Sequence record: NZ_CP110904.1
Length of the DNA: 64,000 nucleotides
Reading direction: 5' to 3' (one strand)
From: a plasmid
The notes beneath the pieces were generated by a model. It saw only the letters and a program-made list of their open reading frames with translations. It was not told the origin of the DNA and made no database searches. Made by a program: the position numbers and the translations under genes. Every line of letters starts with the position of its first letter. Positions within the stretch are counted from its first letter, which is position 1. Positions 1 to 23,439 of this stretch are shown here, piece by piece.

Positions 1-501
1 TTCGGACTGGAGCAGCTGGAGCTCAAATCCAGTGACGTTGACGAACTCGATCCGGAATACCACCAGCAATTCCAGGCTATATACCCGGAGCTGTCCATGT
101 TGTCCCCGGCCGCTATCCAGAGAGCCTATGACGAGTACTGTGAATCGATGTGGGAATACCCTGAGAGGTGCGACGGATTTCTTTATCACCTTATTGGCAG
201 TACCGTCAGTTCGAATGTGTCCCGCGACAACCCGGAAAAAACAGGAAGACTCATCGCACACGCATGGCTGACAGGAGCCTCGGTTGAGGATGCCTATCGT
301 TTTGGCTCAGAGGCTCAGCAGTTCGATACCGCTCTTTCTGGGCTGGCGTATCAGGTATCCGTGGCCATGAAATTTGTTGCCGGTGATTCTGCGGCCGCAG
401 GAAATGAAGGCCATCCGATCAGCACACTTTCCGATACCTTCCGTCAGATGAGAAAAGTAAGTAGTACCCTCCTGACGGCCACACAGAACGGCCGGAAATG
501 A
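1..501 (+). CDS. hypothetical protein, 5'-partial (reading frame open to window start)
   Basis: Frame 1 is open from nt 1 to the stop at 499-501; the ORF-track ATG at 97 is internal. No family recognised. Confidence 0.4.
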   Translation, partial: FGLEQLELKSSDVDELDPEYHQQFQAIYPELSMLSPAAIQRAYDEYCESMWEYPERCDGFLYHLIGSTVSSNVSRDNPEKTGRLIAHAWLTGASVEDAYRFGSEAQQFDTALSGLAYQVSVAMKFVAGDSAAAGNEGHPISTLSDTFRQMRKVSSTLLTATQNGRK

Positions 502-516
502 TAAGCACTAACCAAT

Positions 517-696
517 ATGGATTCTAACAAAAAGCACGATGAATACGTCGACTGGCTCATTGAGCAGGCAGACGATCATGAAATAAATGCCATCAGCTCA
601 GGACTCAGAGATGCGTGGGAACTTTGTACGACCTTTCTGGCCTGTGTTTTGCTCGGCAGTGGGATGGTTCTTGCCTGCTTAAATATCACTCAGTAG
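517..696 (+). CDS. small protein (59 aa) with hydrophobic C-terminal helix
   Basis: ATG at 517 to TAG at 694-696 (MDSNKKHDEYVDWLIEQ...LACVLLGSGMVLACLNITQ). Below the ORF-track cutoff. Sits between two plus-strand genes. Confidence 0.3.
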   Translation: MDSNKKHDEYVDWLIEQADDHEINAISSGLRDAWELCTTFLACVLLGSGMVLACLNITQ

Positions 697-745
697 GGAA
701 ATCTGATGACAACTCAAATTGAAGTTATGACGGTCGCTGAGCTGC

Positions 746-1405
746 ATGCTCAACTACAACAGCTGGTGGATGATTGGCTCGGAGATATTCCGGTATGTGC
801 GACAGATCTCCGCGCCCGGTAACGGTACCGGCGGCGACATTTTTCCGGTGAAAACCCAGCAGGACTACCGTGCCGCCTACCGTAAGCTCGAAGCGGATGG
901 ATATGCACCGGCCGTTATCGAACAAATGACCACAGGCGCTGCCTACAATCTGGCTTATCCACGAATCCCGTTAAAACGCTCTGAGAACGCCACCAGCGAA
1001 CGGAAGCGAAAACCTGACGTGGACATTCAGGGAGAGCCTTGCGAGCGCTTTGTGACCCAGCGGAGCGGCGCAGCGCAGACAAAATTCAAGAATCTCCTTG
1101 TTGAGAATTTCGCGGGTCGGTGTGCGGTCACGGGATGGGTTAATGGTGGTGTGCTGGTAGCGGCTCATATCGAGCATGGGACGCGCTACAACCCTTCGAA
1201 CGGCATCCTGTTGACGCCGACAATGCACGCGCTGTTTGACGCGGATCTGATGGGTATAGACCCGTCCACACTCACCGTTCATTTTAAACCGGGCATCGAG
1301 GCGGGAGAGCTGTTTGAAGGCAAAACGCTCAACCCGTTGGTGTATGACCTGGATACAGACCGGCTGGCTGCTCGCTGGGCTGATTTCCTCGGTACCGAGG
1401 AATAG
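746..1405 (+). CDS. HNH endonuclease-motif protein (HNH_2/PF13391-like: CAVTG...AAHIEH...NGILL...HALFD)
   Basis: 219-aa ORF with a C-terminal HNH signature. An alternative upstream start at 706 (AGGGA SD) lies in another frame and stops at 822, so a frameshifted or pseudogenised N-terminus is possible. Confidence 0.6.
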   Translation: MLNYNSWWMIGSEIFRYVRQISAPGNGTGGDIFPVKTQQDYRAAYRKLEADGYAPAVIEQMTTGAAYNLAYPRIPLKRSENATSERKRKPDVDIQGEPCERFVTQRSGAAQTKFKNLLVENFAGRCAVTGWVNGGVLVAAHIEHGTRYNPSNGILLTPTMHALFDADLMGIDPSTLTVHFKPGIEAGELFEGKTLNPLVYDLDTDRLAARWADFLGTEE

Positions 1406-1519
1406 ATGGAAAATCCAGCCTATACCGGATGACAGTGTTTCCTGGTTAGGCACCTCATTCTGAGATGTGCTGACTGCACGCCACCATTTTATTGAAAACC
1501 GACAGAGTTGATACCACTA

Positions 1520-1927
1520 ATGCCAAATTACCTTACGGGATATTTAAAAGCGACCATTGTTATTTTATCTGCGGGCCTGTCAGGTTGCGACCTGGCAAAT
1601 GGTGCGACGGAAAGTGGAGTGTATCAGAAATACACGAATGGACCTTTCAGGGAGCCGACTATCGTGATGAGTCCGGGCTGGCGAATGGATGACCACGGCA
1701 AGGAAGCACTTATATTCGGGAGCAGCCAATGCCCAGATGCTAACGGCAACACTACGTCTGAGGGCGGTTGCGTCCTCATTGAGAATCACTCTGAGACTGT
1801 CGCGGTCATCGTTGTTGATGCGACAAAGCAATTCCGACGCCAGGAAACATGGACGATTGAACATAAAAAGGATCGGACCATTGTGATGCGCCCGGATAAC
1901 AGTTATGTGATGCCCTGGGTAAAATAG
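1520..1927 (+). CDS. putative lipoprotein
   Basis: N-terminus MPNYLTGYLKATIVILSAGLSGC has a signal peptide and an L-S-G-C lipobox. Confidence 0.5.
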   Translation: MPNYLTGYLKATIVILSAGLSGCDLANGATESGVYQKYTNGPFREPTIVMSPGWRMDDHGKEALIFGSSQCPDANGNTTSEGGCVLIENHSETVAVIVVDATKQFRRQETWTIEHKKDRTIVMRPDNSYVMPWVK

Positions 1928-1959
1928 CCAATTAAGTTAATCAAATTAGGATTCATACT

Positions 1960-2163
1960 ATGGGCATTCAAGATTTGGTTGGAAAAGAAAGAGAGCTGAT
2001 CGTCGTCGCACTACTGGCCCTGCATCGTGAACGCGTTAATAGTTTTAATTCAGCTTGCACGGCATGTTCATTAGCGGGGAAAGAATGGCCGGAACAGGAA
2101 ATGTTTGGTATTAACGAAGTAATGAATGCCCTCCGCATGGTTGGTGCTTTGCCTGTGAGATAA
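1960..2163 (+). CDS. hypothetical small protein (67 aa)
   Basis: ORF with AGGA 11 nt upstream of the ATG. Same strand as its neighbours. Confidence 0.3.
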   Translation: MGIQDLVGKERELIVVALLALHRERVNSFNSACTACSLAGKEWPEQEMFGINEVMNALRMVGALPVR

Positions 2164-2318
2164 TGAGACCTGCTAGCTTCGCATCTGGCTGATTGATTGC
2201 CTGACCTATAACGGATTTCATGAGTTTTGAAGAGATTCTGATGTGGACGCCGTGAACAGGCCTCTTAGCGACGAGGGCTCGTTTTTATGACTAGGCGTGG
2301 ACGCCAGTGCCAACCTGA

Positions 2319-3260
2319 ATGAACAATGGGATGCAAACCGGAAACAACATGAACACCAGAGTGAATAAGCCTCAACCCGTCAGGCTTCGCCCTGTCTTCC
2401 AGAAACTGGAAGAGCTGGGGTTAACAGGGGAAATTATTTCCATTCGCACGGACGGGAAAACTGGAACCTTAACTCCAGACCTGAAGCCTGGTATCTTCAA
2501 AACGGGTCCCTGCCAAACGAAACGGATCATGACCGGCAACTGGGTTATCGCTGACTCAAGGGACTACTTTGAACATGTTGTTCTGTGTGTTGAGCGTCCA
2601 GACGGAGCCTATGACATATTCACCGGCTCTTTCATAAAATTATATCCGGTTGAAAACTGCAAAAGCAAAATCGTCGAAATGAGTAACCCTGTCCTGGTGG
2701 GCATGACTTACTCCATCCGGAAGGTTTTTAATGGAGGAAAGTTCAGTCGGCGAGGAATTGCCTATCTCTCGATCCCCGCAGTAACATCAACAAAAGTAAC
2801 TTTTCCTTCCCGAACGTATCAGGAGGGGCAGGAACAAATCACAATGTCGAGCCCGGACCAGGCACCATTTTCCGAAGATGTCCGGAAAAACTGCGCCGGT
2901 ACGTGTGTTCTTACCGGCGTTCGAGCCAGACAAAGAACTGAGGCAGCGCACATTAAACCCCGTCATGCTGGTGGTGAGCCGGATGTGACAAACGGGATTC
3001 TACTGCGAAGTGACATCCACACCCTCTTTGACAATTGGCACTTTTCAATCGACCCTGATTCAATGAAAGCCCGTTTCAGCCCGGATGTGCTCTCCGTCGA
3101 TAAAGACTTGCTACAACTGGAAGGCAAGCAAATTGATTTTTCCCGCTTGCAAATGCCTATCAATATTGAATACCTGCGACATCACTGGAACGAATTTTTT
3201 AACCGTCATGGCAATCCATTCAGAAAGAAAGAGCCAAATAATAAAAATCAACAATTATGA
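2319..3260 (+). CDS. HNH_2-type nuclease-domain protein with unknown N-terminal domain
   Basis: C-terminal motif CVLTG...EAAHIKP...NGILL...HTLFD is paralogous to the 746-1405 HNH region. Alternative starts at 2331 and 2349. Confidence 0.6.
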   Translation: MNNGMQTGNNMNTRVNKPQPVRLRPVFQKLEELGLTGEIISIRTDGKTGTLTPDLKPGIFKTGPCQTKRIMTGNWVIADSRDYFEHVVLCVERPDGAYDIFTGSFIKLYPVENCKSKIVEMSNPVLVGMTYSIRKVFNGGKFSRRGIAYLSIPAVTSTKVTFPSRTYQEGQEQITMSSPDQAPFSEDVRKNCAGTCVLTGVRARQRTEAAHIKPRHAGGEPDVTNGILLRSDIHTLFDNWHFSIDPDSMKARFSPDVLSVDKDLLQLEGKQIDFSRLQMPINIEYLRHHWNEFFNRHGNPFRKKEPNNKNQQL

Positions 3261-3285
3261 AAAACGCCCAGTTAGCAGCAACATG

Positions 3286-3303
3286 CACTATGAGGCTATG
3301 TTA
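3286..3303. repeat. 18-bp repeat copy 1 ATGAGGCTATGTTAGCCT (internal palindrome AGGCTA-n3-TAGCCT)
   Basis: Exact 18-mer recurs at 3682-3699; the two copies bracket the small ORF 3390-3644. Confidence 0.6.
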
Positions 3304-3389
3304 GCCTAATGGCATTCTTATTTGATAAAGCTTGCTACAAGAAGTTTTGTCAATGTTCAACCTGTTTATCAAACCTATGGAGATTATTT

Positions 3390-3644
3390 ATGACTGGGAG
3401 TGGTATGAATACTGTACGCATAAACAATGAAGTGAAACACATCTCAGAGTTAGATTCCGAGACCCTTTCTCTTGAATGGAATAAACTGAAAAACGAAAAT
3501 AACGAACTGTATCGCTGCATAAAGGAAGCAAATTCTGGTTGGCGAGGTTTTGTCCTTCGTTTGATAGGGGTTCATCTGCCTGATGGTAAAACAATTGTCA
3601 TTCATGGTGTTAGCACTAAAAATGAATCTACTCACACTGAATAA
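3390..3644 (+). CDS. hypothetical small protein
   Basis: ATG at 3390 preceded by GGAG; the ORF-track ORF 3309-3644 contains it. No family recognised. Confidence 0.35.
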   Translation: MTGSGMNTVRINNEVKHISELDSETLSLEWNKLKNENNELYRCIKEANSGWRGFVLRLIGVHLPDGKTIVIHGVSTKNESTHTE

Positions 3645-3681
3645 TACACAATAGAAAAACTGTTAGTATCAAAGATCACAA

Positions 3682-3699
3682 TGAGGCTATGTTAGCCTT
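3682..3699. repeat. 18-bp repeat copy 2 ATGAGGCTATGTTAGCCT
   Basis: Identical to 3286-3303. Confidence 0.6.
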
Positions 3700-3755
3700 C
3701 GAACATTCACAAGAACTAAGAAATTCAAATGGCTTACGTTCAATTCGAGGTAAAA

Positions 3756-4040
3756 ATGATGGCAGATATCAATGACTCTTATTATGCTCGTAACGAAAAG
3801 TGGATTAGGCCAGCACTGATTGCTTTTATATTTGCATTTGGCAATAGTCTCGGTGATATTCTCGGGGTTGCGAGCCCCATAGTTTCCACAGCAAGTATGT
3901 GGTTGGCTGCAATTGCGTTTATTATCACTGGTGTAATGGTGATGTTTACAGATACGATTTCAGCACATATTTTAAAATTGTTGGCGGTCGTGGCACTGTT
4001 AGGGGCAGTCATCACTTTAGTGATTCGCTATTTCACATAG
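3756..4040 (+). CDS. small integral membrane protein (about 3 TM segments)
   Basis: GAGGT SD 5 nt before ATGATG at 3756. Hydrophobic stretches include IAFIFAFG, AAIAFIITGVMVMF and LLAVVALLGAVITLVI. Confidence 0.45.
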   Translation: MMADINDSYYARNEKWIRPALIAFIFAFGNSLGDILGVASPIVSTASMWLAAIAFIITGVMVMFTDTISAHILKLLAVVALLGAVITLVIRYFT

Positions 4041-4320
4041 AATCCCTCAATGAATGCACCGCTTGCACGCTTTCTGAGTTATTGTTTCCCTTTATAAACG
4101 TCGGCTTATGTATAGCGTTCATCTGCACAACGGGGACGTTGAGTGAATGAGAACTGCCGGATTGCGTTCCTGCATTACCACAATCAGAGATCCTGGTTGT
4201 GGTTTCTAAGAAAATTCTGAATATCGGTTCATGAGACCGGTGGTTACAACTTGTAATATATTAGACTTAGCTTTTGATTCATATATTTGTACTATACCCA
4301 CATCATTTATATGGATGTAG

Positions 4321-5133
<813 letters not shown>

Positions 5134-5134
<1 letters not shown>

Positions 5135-5349
5135 AGGCGGTCACATTCATAACAATGACGCTACAAGGCGGTCATACTCATAATATTCCAATCAAAAGCG
5201 GTCGTTTTCATAAGTGCAGCCTATTCTGAGGGCTTTACGCCGTTTAAATGAGCCGAGTTTTATGAACGCAGCGATATCTTATCTGTGATCAAGTTATGAA
5301 AGTAACCGCCTGTTATGAATGCTCCCGCCCATTTATGATAGTGACCGCT
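5134..5349. repeat. iteron-like array: three direct and three inverted copies of ~17-19 bp (A)AGGCGGTCAnnTTCATAA
   Basis: Direct copies at 5134-5152, 5165-5183 and 5194-5212, spaced 29-31 bp apart. Inverted copies at 5294-5310, 5313-5329 and 5333-5349. Confidence 0.6.
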
Positions 5350-5420
5350 TTCCGTTGGATGTTAGTTATCTACACGAAACAGATATTAAGTTAGCTAAGC
5401 CATTTTTATCGTGAACAGGG

Positions 5421-6188
5421 CTAACGATTGCCGCGCAGAAGCTGCAGCGCATCCTGCGTATCGAGTGAGAACCGGACCTGCTGACTGGCGGCCACATCGA
5501 GCGCAAATATCTTTGTGTACACTTCCGTTGATTCAAACTTCTTGTGCCCCATCAGGACCTGCAGAACCTTCGGGTGAACATGGCCATATAAAAGGTGCAT
5601 TGCGAAGCTGTGTCTGAACGTATGCGGGCTGACCGGAATACTGAATCTCACGCCGTCCCGTTCCGCTGCGTCGACGGCACGCTCAAGCCAGTTGCGTACT
5701 GTCCGGTCGGTAACTCCCCAGACCGGCATGGCCCGATGTTCACCTATTAGCTTGTCGTCCTCGAATCTTTCCCGCGTGCTCGCAAATAGCCGACGCATTT
5801 CATCCACGTATCCGGGGTCTGACAGCGGGATCACCCGGTTCGCACTTTTTTCCTTTTTCGGGCGACCGCCAGCTGTGCGGCGTTGTTTGGCCGTACGGAC
5901 CACCACGTGCGGGATCTAATCATTGAGGTGAAAGTTCCTTCTTCTGAGTGCCAGTGTTTCGTTGAGGCGTGCGCCGGTGTTCCACAGCGTGTTAATAAAG
6001 GCGTGTTGATTCCAGTCGGGTAAGTAATGCAGCAGACCAGCCACTTCCGGTGCCAGAAGGTATTTAGGCATCTCGTTATAGTGCCTGGCCATTTCCCGCA
6101 GCGAGAGAGCCCGGCCGTAGTCAAACGGTGCAGAAGTGGCAGTCACCTGCAGGGCAGGGGAGTGATGAACAAAAGCGGGCAGATTCAT
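5421..6188 (-). pseudogene. tyrosine recombinase (phage-integrase/Xer/ResD-like) interrupted by an in-frame TAG
   Basis: ORFs 5916-6188 and 5421-5906 share one frame and are separated by an amber codon (plus-strand CTA at 5916-5918). The C-terminal part has HTFRHSFAMHLL...GH...TEVYT, an R..H..Y catalytic motif. Confidence 0.7.
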
Positions 6189-6410
6189 AACGCACCTGGC
6201 GATAAGGATGCGCTACGCAAAATCTGGCCCGATAACCCCCGTTAACCGTGTCATTTTTCACCTAGCGCAATCTGGTGAAGTTCTGGTTCCATTTTCGCCG
6301 CTGCCGGCGTCGGAAACTACGGAAAAAACCCGCAGAGCCAGGATCTTACATTTTCCTGTTTCTGGAAATATACCATAAAAAGGAAAGAGATAATTTAGCA
6401 GGCTGATCAG

Positions 6411-6436
6411 AGAAGGATCCAAAATGGATCCTTTTT
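6411..6436 (+). terminator. hairpin AAGGATCC-n5-GGATCCTT followed by T5
   Basis: Perfect 8-bp stem plus T-run in the AT-rich intergenic region. No plus-strand gene ends here, so its role is unclear. Confidence 0.3.
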
Positions 6437-6721
6437 CCTTGGATGATGTGGTGATCGGGTGGTGGTAAGGCCCATATGATGTGTTCTGTGACAAACTGCC
6501 CCCGGTGAGGCAGCGCTTCCTGAAAATGGGGTTTTCGGATCCGCGCGGCGGGAAACCGGCAAAGGATATGATTATATGGAGAATATAAGAAAATCATATT
6601 TAGTGTGATATTTATCATTAAACATAAAATCATATCTGATATGATGTTTAACAATTTACGCATAAATAATACCAAGTATGATTATCCACTTAACAGGACA
6701 ATATCAGACGGAGCGTGCAGG

Positions 6722-6982
6722 ATGGATCAGGAACTGAATTTTTCACTCAGCTATGAGCAGCTTTTTCAGGAAGCGGAAGCACAGATTAAAAAATGCGATC
6801 TCCGCGAGGCTGGCCCTTACTACCTCCAGGAGCTGAACAAAGCCCGGGACTTCCTGGCTTTCTGGCACCGGCTGGCGCTGAAAGGGCAAACAGGAGCACC
6901 GGATGCCCGTTTCTATGACCGCATAGACGCCGACTGGGAGCGCCTGGACACGCTTATCCGGAACGGGAACAACGCAGCATGA
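6722..6982 (+). CDS. hypothetical protein (gene 1 of GC-rich operon)
   Basis: ATG at 6722 to TGA at 6980-6982. The stop overlaps the next start (ATGA at 6979-6982). GC is about 60%. Confidence 0.45.
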   Translation: MDQELNFSLSYEQLFQEAEAQIKKCDLREAGPYYLQELNKARDFLAFWHRLALKGQTGAPDARFYDRIDADWERLDTLIRNGNNAA

Positions 6983-8190
6983 CCACAGCCAACGCACGTC
7001 GTCCGTCACCGCTGCAGCGCCGGGTGCTGATTGTGCTGGCCGCCCTCGGTGCGAAACGTCCGGGACCGGTGGCGACAAGAGATATTGAGCGGGTGCTGGC
7101 GCAGGGCGGGGAGGCCCCGGTGTACGGGCCGAACCTCCGCGCCTCCTGCCGGCGCATGGAAGCCGCGGGCTGGCTGCGCACCCTGCGCGCCCCGAACCTG
7201 CAGCTGGCCGTTGAGCTGACGAACGCCGGCCGTGAGCTGGCCGCCCCGCTTCTCGCTGACGAACAGGCGCGCGTCCTGGCGGAACAGCGTGCAACGGCGG
7301 TCCGGGTTCTGCCCCTGGTCCCGCGCAGCCAGACAAAGGAAGCTGACGACCGCCCGGTGGAGCTCGACGGTTGCTGGCACCAGGCGTGCCGGGGCGACTA
7401 CGTTATCCGTCTTGACGGCACCACCTGCCTGCAGCTGTGGAGCGCGGCCGGGCAGGTGACGCGCCTGGAAGGTGATCCCCTGCAGGTCGCCGCCTGGCTG
7501 CAGGCCTGCCACGATGCGGGGATTGCGGTCCGGGTGCAGATCAATGAGAGCGCCGCGCCGGAGGAGGGTTCACCGGACGGTACCGCGCCGGCGGACCTGA
7601 CCGGCACCTGGTACCGCCAGCTGGACACCGCGCTGCAGGCGCTGGGGATCACCGGGCTGACTGAGGATATTCGCCTGGCCGTGGTCAGTCCGGAAGCGTC
7701 CCTGCGGATGCTGCCGGCACCGGCGCGCCTGCTGCACGTTCTGCGCGACGCGGACCCGCTCACGGCTGCCACATACGAGGAAGACACGGAGGCCGCGCTG
7801 GACGACCTGCTGGCCCGCTCGGGATTCACGGGCGACCAGGCGCAGGAGCTGCAGTGGCACCGCATCCGCTGGCCGCAGATGAGTCAGGAAGAAGCTGACC
7901 GGCGCGAGCTGAACAGCCTGCTGGATGAACTGGAACAGCGACAGCTGTACTGCAACCGCGGGCAGCTGACGGAGATTGTGTTTTCGCCGGTCCGCAAACC
8001 CGGCGAGCGCTGGACTGACCGTCTGCAGTGGCTCCTGATGACGGACGGATTCGGGTTCCGGAGTCCGCTCTCCCGTGACGCAGGCTCCCGGGCGCTGGCG
8101 ATCCTGGCCGGTTACACGGGGCAGGAGGTGGCGGAACATCTGGCCACGGTTATCGTCTGGAACGACGACAGCGCGGGGACGCCGTCATGA
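6979..8190 (+). CDS. hypothetical 403-aa protein with N-terminal winged-helix-like segment (gene 2)
   Basis: Long ORF at ~67% GC with start and stop overlaps on both sides. The N-terminus (RRVLIVLAALG...VATRDIERVLAQ) is wHTH-like. Confidence 0.55.
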   Translation: MTTANARRPSPLQRRVLIVLAALGAKRPGPVATRDIERVLAQGGEAPVYGPNLRASCRRMEAAGWLRTLRAPNLQLAVELTNAGRELAAPLLADEQARVLAEQRATAVRVLPLVPRSQTKEADDRPVELDGCWHQACRGDYVIRLDGTTCLQLWSAAGQVTRLEGDPLQVAAWLQACHDAGIAVRVQINESAAPEEGSPDGTAPADLTGTWYRQLDTALQALGITGLTEDIRLAVVSPEASLRMLPAPARLLHVLRDADPLTAATYEEDTEAALDDLLARSGFTGDQAQELQWHRIRWPQMSQEEADRRELNSLLDELEQRQLYCNRGQLTEIVFSPVRKPGERWTDRLQWLLMTDGFGFRSPLSRDAGSRALAILAGYTGQEVAEHLATVIVWNDDSAGTPS

Positions 8191-8840
8191 GCACAGGCAA
8201 CGTCCATTTGATTGTGACCTGCACGAGCCGTAAAACCGTGCCTGCAGGTGATTCGGTCTTTCCGGATGAACGTGACGTGGAGAGAGCTTACGGGCTCTGG
8301 CTTGAAAGGCTGGCGAAGGCCCGACGCGGATCGCCCTCCATGACCGCCGGCGAGCTGTATACGGGCCAGCACTGGAGCAGGGCAGCTGCAGCTGCGGCGC
8401 GGAACGGTGCCGAAATGTGGGTGATTTCAGCTGGCCTGGGGCTACTGCACGTATCAGACCCGGTGGTCCCGTATGAAGCGACGTTCTCCTCGATGCCGTT
8501 CTGCCATCGCACTCACTGGGAACGGCTGACAACGCGACCGCCTGCGGAACGGCGGTGTGCCTCCCTGAAGACGCTGATGCAGGCAGGGCCTGACGATCGG
8601 TTTGTGGTCGCCGCCTCCCCGGTGTACCTGCGCGCCGTTGAATCTGACCTGCTCGCGGGGAGGGGAGCGCTACGTACATCTGAACAGCTGCAGGTTGTCA
8701 CCTCAAAGGGTTACCAGGGGAAGCTGAAAGACAACGTCAGATACACCAGTGCGGGTATGATGAAGGCACTGAACACCAATATGACGGGGCTCAATATCAG
8801 CTATGCATCTCAGTTACTTGTTAACGACGTAAGTAAATGA
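8187..8840 (+). CDS. hypothetical 217-aa protein (gene 3); a truncated paralog lies at 57402-57665
   Basis: ATGA overlap with gene 2. Its C-terminal ~80 aa align at ~45% identity to the ORF 57402-57665 (AASPVYxxAVExDxLAGxGxL...VVTS...MM..L..NM..LNI). Confidence 0.55.
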   Translation: MSTGNVHLIVTCTSRKTVPAGDSVFPDERDVERAYGLWLERLAKARRGSPSMTAGELYTGQHWSRAAAAAARNGAEMWVISAGLGLLHVSDPVVPYEATFSSMPFCHRTHWERLTTRPPAERRCASLKTLMQAGPDDRFVVAASPVYLRAVESDLLAGRGALRTSEQLQVVTSKGYQGKLKDNVRYTSAGMMKALNTNMTGLNISYASQLLVNDVSK

Positions 8841-9018
8841 CATAAGAGTAAGCACCCTGACAGGACGTAAAACTAAAACTCGCGACTTCTTTTTTGATAT
8901 ACGTTACTCAGAAACGATATCATAGGATTTCAGGGAAATATTACGTGCTCTGCTTTCCGAAAGGCTGAACACAATCAAAACAGCCATAAAATATGTATAT
9001 GTAAGGTGCCATTATAAA

Positions 9019-11040
9019 ATGGATTTAGTTTTAGATAATCAAACGAAAAGTTATGCAGTGCAAAATTACAGGCAAGATATAGATGGTCTTCGCGCTGTCG
9101 CCGTCCTGCTTGTTATATTATTTCATGCAGGATTGTCATACTTCCCTTCGGGCTTTATTGGTGTTGATATATTTTTCACCATATCAGGCTTTCTGATTAC
9201 CGGAAAAGTCATCAGTGAAATTGAAAGAGGAACATTCTCACTAACTAATTTTATAAAAGGCAGATTATGGCGATTGCAGCCTGCACTGCTGGTGACAATT
9301 CTCGGCGCAATCATTGTAGCGACATACTGCTACATGCCTGACGATTACACCGCATTCGCAAAAAGTGCCAAATACACCACTCTTTTCTTATCAAACCAGT
9401 ATTTTGATAAGCTTAGTGCAGCATATGCATCTCCTGACTCTGATTACTTCCTGCTTTTGCATACATGGTCGCTGGCAATTGAATGGCAGTGGTATTTTTT
9501 CTTTGCGATTTTCGCGACCATTTTGACACTACTGGCCAGTAAATTTAAAAGAAAGTTTGCGTATAAGCCGTTCCTTTATGGCTGGTTGTTACTTACCTTA
9601 ACTGCAACAATAGTTGTTATTCTTGTCAGTCTGTACTCGCCCAGTCAGCATTACTACTCATTAAATATGCGCGCTTTTGAGTTTCTGATTGGTGGGAGCG
9701 TAGCTTTATTAAAGGACAGAGTTCAGATAACCAACAGATGGATAACTAATACTCTGGCAGTAGTAGCTATCGCTGTACTTATCTGCACTTCAGGTTTAAG
9801 CATACCTGTTGAGACATATCCAAATAGCTGGACACTGCTTGTTTGCCTTGCCTCAGCAACATTACTGATAAACCAGAACACATTCGTAAATCGCACCTTA
9901 CAGTTAGCACCGATAAACTACACAGGGAAAATTTCTTATTCTCTGTACCTGTGGCACTGGCCCATTTTTGCGGCGTTCAACTATCTTGAGTTCTCTCTGT
10001 CCGGCAGGACACTGTGCATTGCGCTGGTGATAACTGCAGGACTGGCGGTGCTTACCTATCACGGTATTGAAGAGCGCTTCCGACGGGTTAAGCTGTCATT
10101 TGCAAAGAGTATAATCCTGCTTGTATTACTCCCTCTTACGGTCTGCACAAGCCTTTACTCATTAACCGTGAAAACGAATGGTTTGCCACAGCGCTTCAGC
10201 GATGAATACAATCGCTCGTTACAGCTGCTGAATTCCGCCTCCGAGAATGCCGCATCGAGGGATGGCTGCCTCAGTGGAAGCCAGGACCTTACGGACTGTC
10301 AGTTCGGCGATCATGAAGGTTCGAAGAAAGCCTTTCTGATTGGCGATTCAAACGCTAACCAGTTCTGGGGGTTTTATGATGTGCTGGCTAAGGATGCTGG
10401 CATAAAAATGTATTCCCTCACCACCTCTTCGTGCCTGACCTTACCAGGAATTTATCAGTTTGACTGGTGGAAATATAAAGGTGTCAAATATCAGGAATGT
10501 CATGATAACGCAGAGCAATATTATGATTATATAAAATCAAATCACTTTGACTACGTCATTATAGGGCATGTATGGTCAAACTATTTTGCAGCCCAGTTAA
10601 TCACTGACGATGGGGATGAGCGAAGTGAAGCACTCTCAGACAGTCGATACGAAATGGCGTTACGTACAGCCATACGTACTATCATAGATGCGGGTTCAAA
10701 GCCAATCATCATGTTCACCATTGCAACCATGCCACGCAACTATCAAAACTGTATAAATCAGCACGTTATTCATCGACGTCCATTTGACATCAATGAATGT
10801 GATATGCAAAACCCGGCAAATACCAACGGGGAAAAAGTCACGCAACTGATGAGTAAAATGAAGGCTGAGTTCCCAGCGCTGACTTTTATTGACCCTAAAT
10901 CAATACAGTGTATTAGTGGTAAATGCATTACCAATATTGATGGCGTAACTGTTTATCGTGATGTGGGACATCTTACCGATTATGCTTCCTATAAATTCGG
11001 TCAGCTGTACCTAAATGAATTTGGTAATCCATTAAAATGA
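9019..11040 (+). CDS. acyltransferase family 3 (OafA/YrhL-type) with C-terminal SGNH-like extension
   Basis: N-terminal RQDIDGLRAVAVLLVILFHAG...FFTISGFLITG plus multiple TM helices and a 300-aa hydrophilic C-terminal domain. The gene is AT-rich (~36% GC). Confidence 0.75.
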   Translation: MDLVLDNQTKSYAVQNYRQDIDGLRAVAVLLVILFHAGLSYFPSGFIGVDIFFTISGFLITGKVISEIERGTFSLTNFIKGRLWRLQPALLVTILGAIIVATYCYMPDDYTAFAKSAKYTTLFLSNQYFDKLSAAYASPDSDYFLLLHTWSLAIEWQWYFFFAIFATILTLLASKFKRKFAYKPFLYGWLLLTLTATIVVILVSLYSPSQHYYSLNMRAFEFLIGGSVALLKDRVQITNRWITNTLAVVAIAVLICTSGLSIPVETYPNSWTLLVCLASATLLINQNTFVNRTLQLAPINYTGKISYSLYLWHWPIFAAFNYLEFSLSGRTLCIALVITAGLAVLTYHGIEERFRRVKLSFAKSIILLVLLPLTVCTSLYSLTVKTNGLPQRFSDEYNRSLQLLNSASENAASRDGCLSGSQDLTDCQFGDHEGSKKAFLIGDSNANQFWGFYDVLAKDAGIKMYSLTTSSCLTLPGIYQFDWWKYKGVKYQECHDNAEQYYDYIKSNHFDYVIIGHVWSNYFAAQLITDDGDERSEALSDSRYEMALRTAIRTIIDAGSKPIIMFTIATMPRNYQNCINQHVIHRRPFDINECDMQNPANTNGEKVTQLMSKMKAEFPALTFIDPKSIQCISGKCITNIDGVTVYRDVGHLTDYASYKFGQLYLNEFGNPLK

Positions 11041-11066
11041 ATCAGGTGTACGGTAATGACTCCAAC

Positions 11067-11570
11067 TTATTGATAGTGTTTTATGTTCAGATAATGCCCG
11101 ATGACTTTGTCATGCAGCTCCACCGATTTTGAGAACGACAGCGACTTCCGTCCCAGCCGTGCCAGGTGCTGTCTCAGATTCAGGTTATGCCGCTCAATTC
11201 GCTGCGTATATCGCTTGCTGATTACGTGCAGCTTTCCCTTCAGGCGGGATTCATACAGCGGCCAGCCATCCGTCATCCATATCACCACGTCAAAGGGTGA
11301 CAGCAGGCTCATAAGACGCCCCAGCGTCGCCATAGTGCGTTCACCGAATACGTGCGCAACAACCGTCTTCCGGAGCCTGTCATACGCGTAAAACAGCCAG
11401 CGCTGGCGCGATTTAGCCCCGACGTATCCCCACTGTTCGTCCATTTCCGCGCAGACGATGACGTCACTGCCCGGCTGTATGCGCGAGGTTACCGACTGCG
11501 GCCTGAGTTTTTTAAATGGCGGAAAATCGTGTTGAGGCCAACGCCCATAATGCGGGCGGTTGCCCGGCAT
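11067..11570 (-). CDS. insB: IS1 InsB (transposase frame; InsAB' is made by frameshift)
   Basis: 167-aa ORF ending ...[12 protein letters not shown]. Confidence 0.9.
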
Positions 11571-11764
11571 CCAACGCCATTCATGGCCATATCAATGATT
11601 TTCTGGTGCGTACCGGGTTGAGAAGCGGTGTAAGTGAACTGCAGTTGCCATGTTTTACGGCAGTGAGAGCAGAGATAGCGCTGATGTCCGGCAGTGCTTT
11701 TGCCGTTACGCACCACCCCGTCAGTAGCTGAACAGGAGGGACAGCTGATAGAAACAGAAGCCAC
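11489..11764 (-). CDS. insA: IS1 InsA
   Basis: 91 aa, [24 protein letters not shown].... Confidence 0.9.
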
Positions 11765-11797
11765 TGGAGCACCTCAAAAACACCATCATACACTAAA

Positions 11798-13783
11798 TCA
11801 GTAAGTTGGCAGCATCACCAATTGACGATACAAATCACTCAGTTCTGTTCTTAATTTTTCTATATCCTTCTCCTCACCTGAATTCTCGATCGCCAGTAAT
11901 TGCTTTTCTTTAACAGTAATTCTTTCACACAACTCTGATAGCGTTGAACAAAATGCCTCTGTATGAGTGGCAGGATAGACGCTTTCATCCTGTTCAGTAC
12001 TCCGCTTACGAACTGAAGTCACTGGTTTAATTTGATGTTCCAGGTTATAGGCTATCTGACGTTCCCTGCGATTGTGCGTTTCATCCATCGCCTGTTTCAT
12101 GGCCGGAGTGATCCTGTTTGCATAGAGTACGGCTTTACCCTCCACATTACGTGCCACACGTCCAATCATCTGAATAAGTGCGTGTGATGAACGTAAAAAA
12201 CCTGCATGGTCAGCATCAAGTATCGCGACCAGTGAGGCTTCAGGGATGTCGAGTCCTTCACGCAGCAGACTGATGCCGATTAAGACATCAAATTCCCCGG
12301 CCCGTAATCCATTGATAATTTCCTGTCTTTCATCTGTTTTGATATCAGAATGCAGATATCGGGACAGGATCCCATTTTCTGTCAGAAAATCATTCAGTTC
12401 TTCTGCGGTCTTTTTGGTCAGCACTGTCACCAGGACACGATTGTTTCTGTTGACGCAATGACGGATTTCTTCAAGTAAGTTCTCCACACACTGGTCTTTG
12501 CTTCGGACCTCAATTTCGGGATCCAGTAAACCGGTGGGGCGGATAATTTGCTGAACAACATTTTTCTTTGATTTCTGCAATTCATATTTACCTGGGGTTG
12601 CGGAAACAAAGACAGTCTGGGGCTTAATCTTCTCAAACTCAGCAAAACTCAGGGGACGATTGTTTTTTGAGGAGGGCAGACGGAAGCCGAAATCGATAAG
12701 AGTATCCTTGCGACTCTGATCGCCACTGTACATGGCTGAGATTTGCGGGACCATTACGTGCGATTCATCAACAAAGAGCAGACCATTTTTTGGCAGGTAA
12801 TCCAGCAGCGTTGTCGGTGGGAGTTCCGGATTTCTGTCGCTGAAATAGCAGGAATAGTTTTCCATACCTGAGCAGTAACCCAGTTCACGGATCATTTCAA
12901 CATCATTGTTAACGCGTTCGTATAAGCGCTCAGCCTCTATCAGACGATTTGCTTTGTTAAGTTCAGCAACCCGTTTCTCCATGTCAGTAAGAATGCTTTT
13001 GGTGGCTGAGGGTATTTTTGCGGTCGGTGTAACAAAGAGTGTTTTGGGTGATATTAAATAATGTTCAATGTCGCCCGTAATTTTCCCACTGACAGGATCA
13101 ATCCATTTTGCGGATTCTATAACATCATCAAAGAGTTCGACCCTGATGGCCTGATGTTCGGAATCGGCAGGGAATATATCAATAACGTCACCGCGAACCC
13201 GGAACATTGCCCGTCCCAGAGTTTTGTCTGTACGGGCATACTGCAGACGTGCCAGTTGATGAATTAACTCCCGCTGGGCGAGTTGTCGTCCTGGGTATAC
13301 CGGGATCTGGATCTCTCTGTATGCGTCCGGATCACCTAATCCGTATATCGAAGAGACGGAAGCGACGACTATCACATCCTGACGTTCAATCAATGCCTTG
13401 GTCGTAGATAACCGTAACCTTTCAAGATGATCGTTGATAGCGGAATCTTTCGGGATAAAGCGGTCACTTCCGGGGATATAGACTTCTGGCTGAAAAAAGT
13501 CGTAGTAAGAAACGAAGTATTCGACAGCATTTTCTGGGAAAAACTGCTTCATCTCCAGATAAAGCTGTGCGGTTAACGTCTTGTTAGGAGCCAGTATTAA
13601 TGTAGGGCGCTGCAAACGGTGTATCACATTCGCCATGGTGAAGGTTTTACCCGAGCCGGTTATCCCCTGAAGTGTCTGATGTGTTGCTCCTGCTTCGACT
13701 CCCGCTATCAGTCTGGCTATTGCTTCGGGCTGATCTCCTGACGGGATATAGCCTGAATGTAAAATGAATTTTCCTGTGGACAT
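11798..13783 (-). CDS. UvrB-like excinuclease subunit paralog, 3' end fused into the IS1 terminus
   Basis: Walker [11 protein letters not shown], helicase motifs and a C-terminal UVR-like coiled region. Start MSTGKF at 13783 with a GGAGAG SD. The last 6 codons (VMLPTY-stop) are encoded by the IS1 inverted repeat. Confidence 0.75.
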
Positions 13784-14015
13784 TATGATCTCTCCTGGTT
13801 GGAACGCCCCGGACAGCGTTAACACTACTACACTATAGTTTATGACAACCCGACGTAAGGCATTTATGCCTGACTGAAGAAAAGTTATTTGTTCTGTACC
13901 AATAAGTTGGCGTTCTGTTCACTTCTATTGTGTACCGTTAAAGTACGAATGTGCCTGATACAACTCTGTCATCTGTCTGGGTTTGTACATCGTGGGGTCA
14001 ATATTTTTTCTTGCA

Positions 14016-14040
14016 TAGTATAGGGGGGTATACTATAGTC
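14016..14040. promoter_or_regulatory. FrmR-type operator palindrome ATAGTATA-GGGGGG-TATACTAT
   Basis: Inverted repeat around a G6 tract, 30 bp upstream of frmR. Confidence 0.5.
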
Positions 14041-14069
14041 TCTTCAATCCTGATTAACAGGGACAATCA

Positions 14070-14345
14070 ATGCCACATTCTCCAGAAGAAAAGAAACAGG
14101 CGCTTGTCCGGGTACGACGTATCAAAGGTCAGATTGCAGCGCTGGAACAGGCGATTGAAAACGAAGCGGAATGTTCTTCATTGTTGCAGCAACTGGCTTC
14201 GGTACGAGGAGCCGTTAAAGGCCTGATGACTGTTGTTCTGGAAAGCTATCTCAGGGAAGAATTTCCCGATACGAACAAAAGAAGGGGGTCGCAGACGAAA
14301 TCTATCAACGACGCTATTTCCATTGTTCGCTCCTATCTCCGTTAA
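14070..14345 (+). CDS. frmR: FrmR formaldehyde-responsive repressor (CsoR/RcnR family)
   Basis: 91 aa, MPHSPEEKKQALVRVRRIKGQIAALEQAIE... is near-identical to E. coli FrmR. Confidence 0.85.
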   Translation: MPHSPEEKKQALVRVRRIKGQIAALEQAIENEAECSSLLQQLASVRGAVKGLMTVVLESYLREEFPDTNKRRGSQTKSINDAISIVRSYLR

Positions 14346-14400
14346 CTCTGCCAGGCAGACGTCTGATGGGGTCAGTAAAAACAGTAATAAAAGGATATGA

Positions 14401-15513
<1,113 letters not shown>

Positions 15514-15563
15514 TTCAGGTTTCACTGGCGATCTTTCAATATTAGTTTTAAAGGAAACAATCC

Positions 15564-15962
15564 ATGTCCAATCCAGTTATTTCAGGCAATGGCATCTTCT
15601 CTCACGTCTTTATCGGTGCTGTAGATGTTCAAAAGTCGGCTGAGTTTTATGACGCCACTTTAGGTGCACTCGGTATCAACAACCTTGGTCCTTTTGGTAA
15701 TGGCTGGGTGTTGTTTGGCCGTGACAAGCCGGCTTTCATCATTGCCCGTCCTGGCAATGGTGAAGCGCCATCCAGCAATGGTGTGACGATTGGCTTTGCT
15801 GCCGCCACGCCTGCTGAAGTTGACGCTTTCCATGCCGCAGGCCTGGCTGCTGGCGGGACTGATGAAGGTCAACCGGGTCCTCGTGGTCATCTGCCAGGTG
15901 CTTATGCTGCCTACCTGCGTGATCCGGCTGGTAACAAGATCTGCTCCTATACCTTCATCTGA
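15564..15962 (+). CDS. VOC (glyoxalase/bleomycin-resistance fold) family protein
   Basis: 132 aa with a typical VOC N-terminus and a SD-like upstream sequence. Confidence 0.55.
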   Translation: MSNPVISGNGIFSHVFIGAVDVQKSAEFYDATLGALGINNLGPFGNGWVLFGRDKPAFIIARPGNGEAPSSNGVTIGFAAATPAEVDAFHAAGLAAGGTDEGQPGPRGHLPGAYAAYLRDPAGNKICSYTFI

Positions 15963-16119
15963 TCGTAGGGTGCATCCGGCACAAATGTTGTACGGTTTGT
16001 CAGTCAGGCGAACGGTATGAGTTGTGCCAGCTTATGAAGATCAACCCGCAGACGTTTACGTCTGCGGGTATCTTTCTCGAAGCGTAATGTGACTGGCCGT
16101 CAGAAAAAGAGAGAGTCTT

Positions 16120-17454
16120 ATGAAAGAGTCAGCATTATCTGCTATCCGTTCTGAGATGCAATCGCCCGAAACCGTGTACGGGATGCCGGCTCATAAAGAC
16201 AGAACGGCCGCTGTCAATGAAGTACATGCGCGTCCGCACCTGCTTATCACATCACCACAGACCCTGCTGCAGTTTGCTTTCATGACTAAAGGCGACCAGT
16301 CAGGTGACCAGCGGGTCATGGTTGAGCTGTCAGATCGTCTTGGTTTAACACCATCAGAAAATTCAGCCCCCCTGCACGGTATCACGTGGCGGGAAGGCGC
16401 TTTGTATTGTGAAAAACACGGTGAGTTTTCCACCTACTTATGGAGTACCACATGCGATCCGCGTGACGGACAGTTAAGGGGAGAGAACCCCTTCCGGCAT
16501 GGTTTCACGCCACCGGGTTCGGTTATCTGTGGTACCCGTCTGGATATTCTGCCATGGACTGCAGAATCTGAGGCTGCAGTAACGAATTTAGATCCTGTCA
16601 GCAGGTGCTATTCAGTAACAGAAAATGGCCGTGCCGCAATTATCTCTGATTTTCGCCAGGATAAAGACGGACTGACACGCATTCTGATACTTGAACGGGA
16701 CCTGACAGAGGCACAGCTGGGTGCACTGGTTCAGCGGCTGCTTGAGATTGAAAATTATCGCACGCTTGCTTTGCTTTCTTTACCACTGACAAGAACCATG
16801 GCCTCTGAACTGAGGCGAGTGGAAAACCGACTGGCTGAAATTACAGAAGAAATGCGCACCGGAGAGCATCGTAAAAATGAACAGTTGCTCTCTGCGTTGA
16901 CCAATCTTGCCGCAGAACTTGAAGCCGGCGCTGCAGCGAATCTGTACCGGTTTGGCGCAAGCCAGGCCTACTATGAAATTGTTGAGGAAAGGCTGAATAC
17001 GCTCTCCGAAACGCCGGTTCCAGGCTACTACACCTGGGCTGATTTTTTGCAACGGCGCATTGCCCCAGCCATGCGAACCTGCCGTTCTGTGAAAGAACGA
17101 CAGGCGAAGCTGTCTGACAAACTCATGCGGGCTATTTCGTTACTTCGCTCCTGGATAGATGTTGAACTGGAACATCAGAACCGTGACCTGCTGGCTTCGA
17201 TGAATAACCGGGCCAGACAACAGCTACATCTGCAGCAAACCGTTGAAGGATTGTCTGTTGCCGCCATTTCATATTATGTGGTGAGTCTGATTTCGTATCT
17301 GGTGAAAGGGGTTCCCGGGATCCACGATGTCATGCCACCTGAACTGGCGGTTGCCATTCTCGTGCCCTTCATTGTGCTCGCGATTTGGTGGGTGGTGCGA
17401 AGAATAAGAAACTCGCACACCGACCCTGAACATAACGAAAACCACTCTGACTGA
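16120..17454 (+). CDS. conserved hypothetical protein with C-terminal TM helices
   Basis: 444-aa ORF with a hydrophobic C-terminus (VAAISYYVVSLISYLV...ILVPFIVLAIWWVV). Family not confidently assigned. Confidence 0.5.
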   Translation: MKESALSAIRSEMQSPETVYGMPAHKDRTAAVNEVHARPHLLITSPQTLLQFAFMTKGDQSGDQRVMVELSDRLGLTPSENSAPLHGITWREGALYCEKHGEFSTYLWSTTCDPRDGQLRGENPFRHGFTPPGSVICGTRLDILPWTAESEAAVTNLDPVSRCYSVTENGRAAIISDFRQDKDGLTRILILERDLTEAQLGALVQRLLEIENYRTLALLSLPLTRTMASELRRVENRLAEITEEMRTGEHRKNEQLLSALTNLAAELEAGAAANLYRFGASQAYYEIVEERLNTLSETPVPGYYTWADFLQRRIAPAMRTCRSVKERQAKLSDKLMRAISLLRSWIDVELEHQNRDLLASMNNRARQQLHLQQTVEGLSVAAISYYVVSLISYLVKGVPGIHDVMPPELAVAILVPFIVLAIWWVVRRIRNSHTDPEHNENHSD

Positions 17455-17501
17455 GTTGTTACGTTGTTGCTTAATTGTCCTGTCGTTATACGGAGAAAAT
17501 C

Positions 17502-18332
17502 ATGGAACGTCTTGAACATCATGCCAGCTTTGATGGGTGGCAGGAAGTTTATCAGCATGAGTCTGGCACGCTTGGCTGCACGATGAAATTTGGTGTTTAT
17601 ACTCCACCCCAGGCGCTTAACGGTAATGTACCGGTACTCTACTGGCTTTCCGGTCTGACCTGTACGGAACAGAATTTTATTACCAAATCGAGCGTTCAGC
17701 GTTATGCCGCAGAGCATGGGATCATGATTGTGGCACCAGACACCAGTCCGCGTGGCACTGATATTCCTGATGATCCTGACTACGCTCTCGGTCAGGGGGC
17801 AGGATTCTATGTTAATGCAACCCAGGAGCCCTGGGCGACACATTACAAAATGTATGACTATGTGGTAAACGAGCTCCCGTCCCTGATTGAAGAATGGTTC
17901 CCGGCGTCTGATAAAAGAAGTATCAGTGGACATTCGATGGGCGGACATGGCGCCCTGATGATTGCGCTCAGAAACCCGGGCCGCTATCAGAGTGTATCCG
18001 CATTCTCACCGATCGTCGCACCTTCTCAGGTGCCCTGGGGAGAAAATGCATTGTCTGCTTATCTGGGTGATGATCGGGAATACTGGAAGCAGTACGACAC
18101 GGTTGAGTTGATCCGTAACGCGCAGGAAAGGCTACCTCTGCTTGTAGATCAAGGACTGAATGATGAGTTTCTGAAGACTCAGCTTCAGCCGGAGAGACTG
18201 AAGAGCGTTTGTGAGGACACCGGTCATCCGTTGACGCTTAACCTGCGTCCGGGCCACGATCACAGCTACTACTTTATCTCCAGCTACATTGGCGACCACA
18301 TTGCACATCATGCAGCAGCACTGACGCGCTAA
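17502..18332 (+). CDS. frmB: S-formylglutathione hydrolase (esterase D family)
   Basis: MERLEHHASFDGWQEVYQHES...GHSMGGHGAL is closely similar to E. coli FrmB/YeiG. GGAGAAAATC precedes the ATG. Confidence 0.8.
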   Translation: MERLEHHASFDGWQEVYQHESGTLGCTMKFGVYTPPQALNGNVPVLYWLSGLTCTEQNFITKSSVQRYAAEHGIMIVAPDTSPRGTDIPDDPDYALGQGAGFYVNATQEPWATHYKMYDYVVNELPSLIEEWFPASDKRSISGHSMGGHGALMIALRNPGRYQSVSAFSPIVAPSQVPWGENALSAYLGDDREYWKQYDTVELIRNAQERLPLLVDQGLNDEFLKTQLQPERLKSVCEDTGHPLTLNLRPGHDHSYYFISSYIGDHIAHHAAALTR

Positions 18333-18343
18333 ATTCAGGAATT

Positions 18344-19660: not shown

Positions 19661-19863
19661 TACCTGAACCTTACTGATGCCGCTGAAACATCAGCGGCAT
19701 TCCTTATTTAATCACCGGCGCCGGCGCAGGCTATTCGCTTACTGCTGCATAAATCCCTTTTGTCATTATTCCTTCTTAACTAATGGTTCGGCACATCGGT
19801 TAACGCCATTCAACGTAACCAGCGTCAGAAGTAAAGTTGATTTACGTATTACAGGATTAAACT

Positions 19864-23415: not shown

Positions 23416-23439
23416 TGTATACTACACGGGAGGTATACA
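23416..23439. promoter_or_regulatory. operator-like palindrome TGTATAC-n10(G-rich)-GTATACA
   Basis: Inverted repeat with a central GGGAGG, 60 bp upstream of the second frmR-like gene. Confidence 0.4.

Follow-up and report, generated by a model that had tools for sequence, protein, structure and literature searches.

This report concerns a three-gene operon at positions 6722 to 8840 of a 64,000-nucleotide (nt) stretch of an IncHI1B-type multiresistance plasmid (sequence record NZ_CP110904.1), the whole of which is referred to here as the window. The operon has been seen so far only on enterobacterial plasmids; its last gene encodes a protein of the DUF6884 family. The three open reading frames (ORFs), the parts of the second of them and the conserved region upstream are as follows (aa, amino acids; AF2, AlphaFold2).

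6536-6555, + strand: conserved GC-rich box CGGATCCGCGCGGCGGGAAA, the left edge of the conserved unit, alignable in most of 16 loci
6567-6682, + strand: operator-/promoter-like region with hexamers, a palindrome and a sigma-70-like site
6722-6982, + strand: ORF1, 86 aa plus stop
6979-8190, + strand: ORF2, 403 aa
6997-7245, + strand: ORF2 winged helix, residues ~7-89 (AF2 model)
7351-7554, + strand: ORF2 long helix and small beta/alpha domain, residues 125-192
7576-7893, + strand: ORF2 hypervariable helical middle, residues ~200-305
7894-8187, + strand: ORF2 conserved C-terminal helical domain, residues ~306-400
8187-8840, + strand: ORF3, 217 aa

The ATGA overlap of ORF1 and ORF2 at 6979-6982 was read straight from the sequence and that of ORF2 and ORF3 at 8187-8190 was deduced from the ORF coordinates. 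An initial annotation, made from the sequence alone, had described three ATGA-coupled ORFs of 87, 403 and 217 aa; the coordinates, the overlaps and the two larger sizes stand, although the figure of 87 counts the stop codon and the true length is 86. Ratios of nonsynonymous to synonymous substitution (dN/dS) against orthologues are 0.31-0.46 for ORF2, 0.16-0.19 for ORF3 and 0.25-0.64 for ORF1, and all three ORFs are under purifying selection, which is strong in ORF3. Proteins identical to ORF1, ORF2 and ORF3 are encoded on 17-28 public contigs, where they are named hypothetical or DUF6884, and a proteome table lists Klebsiella homologues of ORF1 and of the N-terminal half of ORF2 (PMC12470040). 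For these reasons the three are genuine genes and not chance ORFs of GC-rich DNA, in keeping with the earlier description of the operon as genuine and plasmid-borne.

No domain had been recognised initially in the 217-aa protein. ORF3 nevertheless scores 42.2 bits against Pfam DUF6884 (PF21818; gathering cut-off 30; 1.1e-10) and matches nine PADLOC models of DpdC, the best being PDLC02818 (7.5e-43, model positions 3-233 of 319). The protein is basic, with an isoelectric point (pI) of 9.5, and contains the motifs C12-TSR-K16 (CxxxK) and I80-SAGLG85 (SAGxG). Residues C12, K16, Y58, H62, W63, E76, S81-A82-G83, G85 and D91, among others, are invariant in 13 diverse plasmid homologues, and both motifs together with E76 are unchanged across the IncR, IncL, IncHI1B, IncHI2 and IncFII paralogues. 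We read the putative active site of ORF3 as intact, and its invariant Cys, Lys and Glu would suit a thiol-based attack on a nitrile or a similar carbon. According to the Pfam curators, DUF6884 is a distant relative of YaaA with CxxxK and LSAxxG motifs, and the two share a fold and a positively charged DNA-binding cleft (PMC11701544). DNA with abasic or RNA-base lesions pulled down Bacillus subtilis YfjM, which belongs to DUF6884 (PMC11701544), and DpdC, the DUF6884 protein of the Dpd system, converts 2'-deoxy-7-cyano-7-deazaguanosine (dPreQ0) in DNA to dADG (2'-deoxy-7-amido-7-deazaguanosine) independently of DpdA and DpdB (PMC10164549; PMC11888242).

Within the operon PADLOC recognises only DpdC and PDC-M57A models, in ORF3 only, and no complete protein set of a defence system. 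When the 40 ORFs of the window with 170 aa or more were compared with the PADLOC models (E <= 1e-8, 64 kb), neither DpdA and DpdB nor any of DpdD to DpdK was found, and no Dpd partner is present among the annotated or called genes of the related plasmid loci that were read. Because these partners are missing from the 64-kb window, ORF3, a DpdC-like protein by profile and motifs, is an orphan that stands outside any Dpd system, and in the absence of DpdA and DpdB it cannot make 7-deazaguanine DNA within such a system. A full-text search of the literature found no study of these plasmid genes.

The winged helix-turn-helix (wHTH)-like N-terminus that had been suspected in the 403-aa protein is borne out by the AF2 model of ORF2, in which a winged helix of the MarR/PadR/HxlR-like kind occupies residues ~7-89; the models are confident, with a predicted local distance difference test score (pLDDT) of 84.5 over full-length ORF2 and of 83.7 over residues 118-403. 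The small domain at residues 125-192 is modelled as five strands plus a helix, and a WYL domain was sought behind the wHTH and not found. By sequence, ORF2 belongs to no curated wHTH family: in Pfam it finds PaaX alone, with 13.5 bits where 24.8 are required, and it has no match in NCBIfam, in PADLOC at E <= 1 or, by single-sequence and profile searches, in the PDB. Since PADLOC finds nothing in ORF2, the idea that it might supply a C-terminal DpdC domain that ORF3 lacks was rejected. The winged helix matches phrog_19460, a family whose function is not annotated (6.8e-6), and the middle and C-terminal parts have no likeness to solved or viral structures. ORF1 gave zero matches in Pfam, NCBIfam, PADLOC, PHROG and PDB, in single-sequence and in profile searches alike, and ORF1 and ORF2 fall in no described family.

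The ORF2 family is small. A phmmer search retrieved 265 matches, mostly fragments, among 1.84 billion protein representatives, and 18 ORF2 loci are present in a species-representative genome collection, all of them in Enterobacterales except for one Pseudomonas record. Across the loci compared (designated by L numbers) the winged helix is 79-95% identical, save in L026, the most divergent, where it falls to 59%; identity drops to 45-60% in the rest of ORF2, with 45-85% in the beta domain. The middle is only 42% identical to that of L008, between flanks of 84-94%; it exists in at least four versions and is wholly absent from L029. At the nucleotide level, the winged-helix DNA (6997-7245) is 92-94% identical in ~2,200 Klebsiella plasmids and synonymous divergence (dS) is lower in this segment (0.2-0.8) than elsewhere in ORF2 (1.0-1.5), while the middle (7576-7893) is swapped for unrelated-looking versions among close relatives. 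This combination of a low dS in the winged-helix segment and a swapped middle suggests either recurrent recombination at domain borders or extra constraint on the winged-helix DNA.

These comparisons show that the locus consists of a conserved head, made up of the repeat region, ORF1 and the first ~195 residues of ORF2, and an exchangeable tail, which in the window comprises the ORF2 middle and C-terminal domain followed by ORF3. Three lengths of ORF2 are encountered: a long form, a form of ~320 aa and a short form of 196-218 aa that ends at the domain border. The long form is followed by a DUF6884 gene in six loci (L001, L002, L004, L006, L008 and L011), and the short and ~320-aa forms precede unrelated genes. 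The genes behind the head in relatives include PADLOC matches to the known anti-phage genes PD-T4-5 (5e-127), HEC-04 (9e-42) and PDC-S64 (7e-20). The distant IncFII locus L029 encodes, with overlapping or close spacing, an ORF1-like protein (34% identity), an ORF2 without the middle (63%/40%), a DUF6884 protein (49.5%) and a thermonuclease. The ORF2 C-terminal domain thus accompanies DUF6884 in the six loci and in L029, and because L029 keeps both, their association is old. The initial annotation had proposed examining the neighbourhood of homologs, and the triplet is indeed kept at this depth; its notion of "regulator + unknown + unknown" as a fixed unit gives way, however, to that of a triplet which is one variant of a modular locus.

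The head extends upstream of the coding sequences. DNA to the left of the GC box, which occurs once in the window, is unrelated between the 16 loci compared, and several plasmid matches to the window start at 6532. The ~190 nt ahead of ORF1 are conserved across the loci compared and contain five TATGAT/ATCATA hexamers (6567, 6593, 6629, 6640 and 6677), a number reached by none of 2000 shuffles of the region (mean 0.23), and these repeats keep their positions from locus to locus. A perfect palindrome, ATCATATCTGATATGAT, lies at 6629-6645 and is unique in the window. The operator-like region also holds a 28-nt direct repeat and a predicted sigma-70-like promoter site at 6655-6682; no Rfam match was found in 4000-11500. 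ORF1 itself, preceded at 9 nt by a GGAG Shine-Dalgarno sequence, encodes an acidic (pI 4.9), fast-evolving protein. Homologues immediately precede ORF2 in 13 of the 18 genome loci (34-58% identity, tblastn) and also in four others among those checked, L002, L023, L029 and L033 (29-58% overall), and are missing from the most divergent loci, L026, L030 and L032. A longer ORF1 starting at GTG 6605 was rejected because the added stretch is repeat DNA that is conserved but non-coding, and because the protein start MDxE(L/V)xFSLSY is common to 14 of the 16 loci.

It might be argued that the head is itself a plasmid maintenance device, either a partition-like centromere binder that is independent of a nucleoside triphosphatase (NTPase) or an addiction pair resembling a toxin-antitoxin system, and that ORF3 and the ORF2 tail are co-transcribed passengers. 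PLSDB plasmids with a DNA match to the winged-helix segment number 2,609 (~3.6%), mostly Klebsiella IncFIB(K)/FII(K), whereas only 9 plasmids carry most of 6500-9000; moreover, the head adjoins rep, iterons and a resD-like recombinase gene, and a Rep_3 contig of 4.3 kb, nearly devoid of other genes, carries a short form. Against this, Pfam, NCBIfam and PADLOC assign neither ORF1 nor ORF2 to a family of toxins, antitoxins or partition proteins, and the absence of ORF1 from the three divergent loci is a misfit for an obligate pair. IncR plasmids, furthermore, are reported to carry their own parAB, which counts against a maintenance role for the head. The ORF2 C-terminal domain and DUF6884 co-occur, and are translationally coupled, even at 40-50% identity, which argues against their being passengers. 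We regard this explanation as unlikely.

The reading that we favour, at a probability of roughly 0.45 and hence somewhat short of even odds, is that of an autoregulated, two-module accessory operon engaged in DNA-level conflict. The head would be a conserved DNA-binding pair of the plasmid backbone (ORF1 and the N-terminal half of ORF2), in which the winged helix of ORF2 most likely binds the TATGAT/ATCATA repeats and the palindrome within 6567-6682 and so controls transcription downstream. The tail would be an exchangeable effector cassette. Given the conserved Cys-x3-Lys and SAGxG motifs and the DUF6884/DpdC kinship with YaaA, ORF3 is most likely an active enzyme, which would bind DNA, flip a base out and alter it by means of its cysteine. 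Its target could be the modified DNA of incoming phages or the plasmid's own DNA, in marking or repair, and the ORF2 tail may serve as a partner or specificity element of ORF3. The hypervariability of the ORF2 middle, the exchange of cassettes with known anti-phage genes and the kinship with DpdC point to conflict with phage or other foreign DNA, and a defence, exclusion or addiction role is plausible. The comparisons establish that the genes are real, which domains they encode, that the locus is modular and its cis-elements conserved, that Dpd partners are absent and what cargo the relatives carry; the binding of ORF2 to the operator, the catalysis, the functional link between ORF3 and the ORF2 C-terminal domain and the biological role of the operon are inferred.

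A narrower form of this proposal, which we consider quite improbable, is that ORF1-3 constitute a plasmid system directed against hypermodified DNA, in which ORF3 acts on 7-deazaguanine or other modified bases of phage DNA. If this were so, ORF3 would remove or change the protective mark of the phage, or else introduce a lesion; the middle and C-terminal domains of ORF2 would provide specificity or sensing and would be the part that diversifies; and repression by the winged-helix head would hold the system in check until it is needed. The same logic would then extend to the ORF3-like genes of pOXA-48, IncHI2 and IncHI1B plasmids.

Several observations weigh against the proposed role in conflict. 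Most of the cargo behind the head is without defence annotation, so that the idea of a defence slot rests on 2 of ~12 contexts, and in the Klebsiella IncFIB(K) plasmids the genes carried there encode a DNA-binding protein and one with an Hha domain. The coupling of ORF2 to DUF6884 is not strict: L005 and L026 have a long ORF2 without DUF6884, and L015 has a short ORF2, then a 118-aa gene and only then DUF6884. ORF3 is without the C-terminal ~85 positions of the DpdC model and has no match in NCBIfam, and without DpdA, dPreQ0 would occur only in foreign DNA. Finally, ORF3-like genes on IncHI, IncL and IncR plasmids adjoin genes for H-NS, UmuDC, SOS-response-associated peptidase (SRAP) and thermonuclease.

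The last of these points keeps alive, together with the kinship to YaaA and YfjM and the adjoining rep and res genes, a different explanation in which ORF3 cares for plasmid DNA. Its task would be to recognise abasic sites, ribonucleotides, oxidised bases and the like in plasmid DNA and to process them, for instance while the plasmid is transferred as a single strand and becomes established. The thermonuclease, SRAP and UmuDC would work beside it, and ORF1 and ORF2 would be regulators only. YaaA is a DNA-binding protein of the oxidative-stress response, and the pull-down of YfjM on lesions (PMC11701544) fits the same picture. A thermonuclease gene comes after the DUF6884 gene in the IncR and IncFII relatives, where an SRAP gene is also nearby, and the DUF6884 gene of pOXA-48 adjoins umuDC. 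ORF3-like genes of ~210-227 aa are carried by 2,963 of the 72,556 PLSDB plasmids (~4%; tblastn), 2,516 of them conjugative, with identities to ORF3 of 50.7% (IncL, pOXA-48-type), ~42% (IncHI1B) and 38% (IncHI2). Two conserved peptide patterns, searched against the phage contigs of IMG/VR, retrieved no relative, on which ground a phage origin of ORF3 was rejected. DNA care would leave unexplained, however, the hypervariable ORF2 middle and the exchange of cassettes with anti-phage genes. The loci adjoin rep and res genes, and neither an oriT nor transfer genes are present in the stretches examined; the thermonuclease of L008 has, by eye, an apparent N-terminal signal peptide, implying a periplasmic protein that is unlikely to act on plasmid DNA; and no repair phenotype is known. 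On balance we think DNA care somewhat unlikely, and conflict at the level of DNA remains our preferred reading.

The composition of the operon could suggest another origin, namely that the block was recently imported from a high-GC genome or is what is left of a Dpd island in decay, an orphan dpdC with no function today. GC content reaches 0.62-0.72 over 6750-8750 compared with 0.38-0.48 in both flanks, in a plasmid of ~0.45-0.5, and GC at third codon positions (GC3) of ORF2 is 0.82, values that confirm the GC-rich block amid AT-rich DNA described in the initial annotation. The best defence-model matches are to DpdC. In addition, window positions 1-4125 and 11052-25000 are 100% identical to, and contiguous in, the Citrobacter plasmid pCF_324-2; therefore 4126-11051, which includes the operon, is an extra segment of 6.9 kb absent from this otherwise identical relative. 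Its right edge falls exactly at an insertion sequence (IS) terminus at 11052, which we take to be that of IS1. The further inference from GC content to recent acquisition from a high-GC donor is not supported, since homologues of ORF2 on enterobacterial plasmids all have a GC content of 0.57-0.69, whichever gene comes next. Being common to all of them regardless of what lies behind, high GC is a trait of the ORF2 family, with no sign of recent transfer from a high-GC donor; such a donor was rejected given this family-wide composition, the total of 265 relatives and the near-exclusive occurrence of the loci in Enterobacterales. The selection acting on all three genes, the intact ORF3-like genes on ~3,000 plasmids and the lack of any Dpd partner in the window or in the related loci that were read also speak against this account. 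Either version of this account is highly improbable.

The 6.9-kb segment contains, in addition to the operon, the following features.

4327-4938: IS3-family transposase fragment
4865-5134: apparent 3' end of a rep gene, judged from the translation
5134-5213: three 19-nt iteron-like repeats
5421-6188: resD-like recombinase gene, frameshifted
9019-11040: 673-aa acyltransferase gene, in some records "O-acetyltransferase OatA"

The segment has the look of a fragment from an IncR/FIA-like plasmid that IS activity either brought in here or removed from the relative; positions 6997-11051 match the IncR-type plasmids pOP-I (95.5%) and pK245 (89.6%). The acyltransferase gene has a GC content of ~0.42 and a promoter-like site of its own at 8894-8923. 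In the IncR lineage it sits between ORF3 and the thermonuclease gene, and because the thermonuclease gene directly follows the DUF6884 gene in L006, L008 and L029, the acyltransferase gene looks like a later insertion. Its product, a cell-surface acetylase, could itself alter phage adsorption.

Outside the segment, the window contains a second, truncated copy of the third gene, noted previously as an ORF cut by a transposon inverted repeat. The ORF at 57402-57665 (- strand) is 46% identical to ORF3 residues 131-211 over 82 residues (E = 1e-20), and its surroundings are as follows.

57402-57668, - strand: 3' remnant of a paralogous DUF6884 gene of the IncHI1B backbone, C-terminal 88 codons
57669-57706, + strand: 38-bp Tn3-family terminal inverted repeat GGGGAGCCCGCAGAATTCGGAAAAAATCGTACGCTAAG, an exact match, which cuts the paralogue
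57702-58469: 3' end of a Tn3-family transposase ORF, after the inverted repeat

The remnant corresponds, at 100% identity, to the last part of a DUF6884 gene of p34983-328.905kb that encodes 221 aa; a full-length comparison of this product with ORF3 gives 43% identity. The context of this gene in IncHI1B plasmids consists of DUF6884, a 150-aa gene and an H-NS-family gene, and there is no ORF1 or ORF2. The copy at 57402-57668 is a resident paralogue of the IncHI1B backbone that has been cut by a transposon; it was previously taken as a sign of a mobile family, but it is native to this backbone and merely truncated. A 150-aa ORF with no family assigned lies directly downstream of it (56912-57364, - strand). 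The arrangement of DUF6884 and a 150/151-aa gene followed by an H-NS-family gene is kept in IncHI1B and IncHI2 plasmids (L022, L025), and the 150-aa protein may be a functional partner of the DUF6884 paralogue.

Other parts of the window are mentioned for completeness. The backbone at 11801-25612 encodes, according to the annotation of pCF_324-2, UvrB- and UvrA-like proteins, two frmR genes and the formaldehyde-detoxification enzymes S-(hydroxymethyl)glutathione dehydrogenase and S-formylglutathione hydrolase, a cluster of repair and detoxification genes that is unusual for a plasmid. Other PADLOC matches among the window ORFs of at least 170 aa are to mad3 (1.5e-63), mad8 (7.7e-27) and PbeA (9.9e-17); the UvrA/UvrB-like genes at 11.8-22.5 kb are candidate sources of the matches to ATPase models. 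An HNH model matches the ORF at 746-1402 (1.3e-9), and a model of a type IV methyl-directed restriction enzyme also has a match in the window (6e-9). In the mer region, a 136-aa membrane-protein ORF (55399-55809, - strand) has an N-terminus made of five tandem copies of SEPQK (MSEPQKSEPQKSEPQK...), which look like an in-frame expansion of a 15-nt tandem repeat at its 5' end.

ORF3-like genes ride on the main vehicles of carbapenemase and multiresistance genes (pOXA-48/IncL, IncHI2, IncHI1B and IncR), where they and the head genes are annotated just as hypothetical or DUF. What is new here is the setting of a DpdC-family protein, a plasmid operon that is independent of Dpd and whose other products are uncharacterised; the DUF6884 family and DpdC were already known. 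DpdC is the sole DUF6884 member with a known reaction and its substrate cannot be made by these plasmids, so the substrate of the plasmid enzymes could reveal a new reaction of DNA modification or repair, or a way of handling modified phage DNA. The head, with its repeat array and swappable cassettes, offers a practical landmark by which variable cargo, defence genes among it, can be located on plasmids of enterobacteria.

Among characterised proteins, DpdC of the Salmonella Montevideo Dpd system (PMC10164549) resembles ORF3 in its DUF6884 domain and in the CxxxK and SAGxG motifs, and its ability to act on DNA without DpdA or DpdB makes a stand-alone ORF3 enzyme mechanistically conceivable. 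In contrast to the Dpd system, however, ORF3 is a protein of 217 aa encoded in an operon with two unrelated proteins and with no Dpd partners within 64 kb, and its substrate cannot be host-made dPreQ0-DNA. YaaA (DUF328, PDB 5CAJ) and YfjM are linked to the basic ORF3 protein by the kinship of DUF6884 and YaaA, although a sequence search of the PDB with ORF3 did not return YaaA; they are encoded by chromosomal housekeeping or stress genes, whereas ORF3 is a member of a plasmid operon.

The combination of a winged helix and a small beta-rich domain, an upstream palindrome and varied cargo that includes anti-phage genes resembles the regulators of BrxR/CapW type (wHTH-WYL) found upstream of diverse defence systems, from which the head differs in that no WYL domain was recognised in ORF2. 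A further parallel is provided by pOXA-48 (IncL), whose operon encodes a 395-aa RelB-like protein, a 90-aa HTH protein and a 227-aa DUF6884-like protein. As in the window, the ORF3 homologue (50.7% identical) is the last, overlapping gene of three on a conjugative plasmid, and its DNA-binding partner proteins are of ~90 and ~400 aa; the gene order is different, however, and the partners have ribbon-helix-helix (RHH) and HTH folds rather than a winged helix. Neither partner is a homologue of ORF1 or ORF2. The 395-aa partner was rejected as a homologue of the ORF2 tail: both contain "GFTxxQA", but BLASTP was not significant and hhalign gave a probability of 6.5%. In the pOXA-48-type plasmid NZ_CP068908.1 (L024 3514-5672) this protein carries the annotation RelB/DinJ antitoxin; its N-terminus is of RHH type, and a unit of ~95 aa (FLxFLAxRGxSCS ... 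FGFTxxQA) occurs twice inside it. There are versions of it with the same N-terminal half and differing C-terminal halves, an arrangement that parallels the modularity of ORF2.

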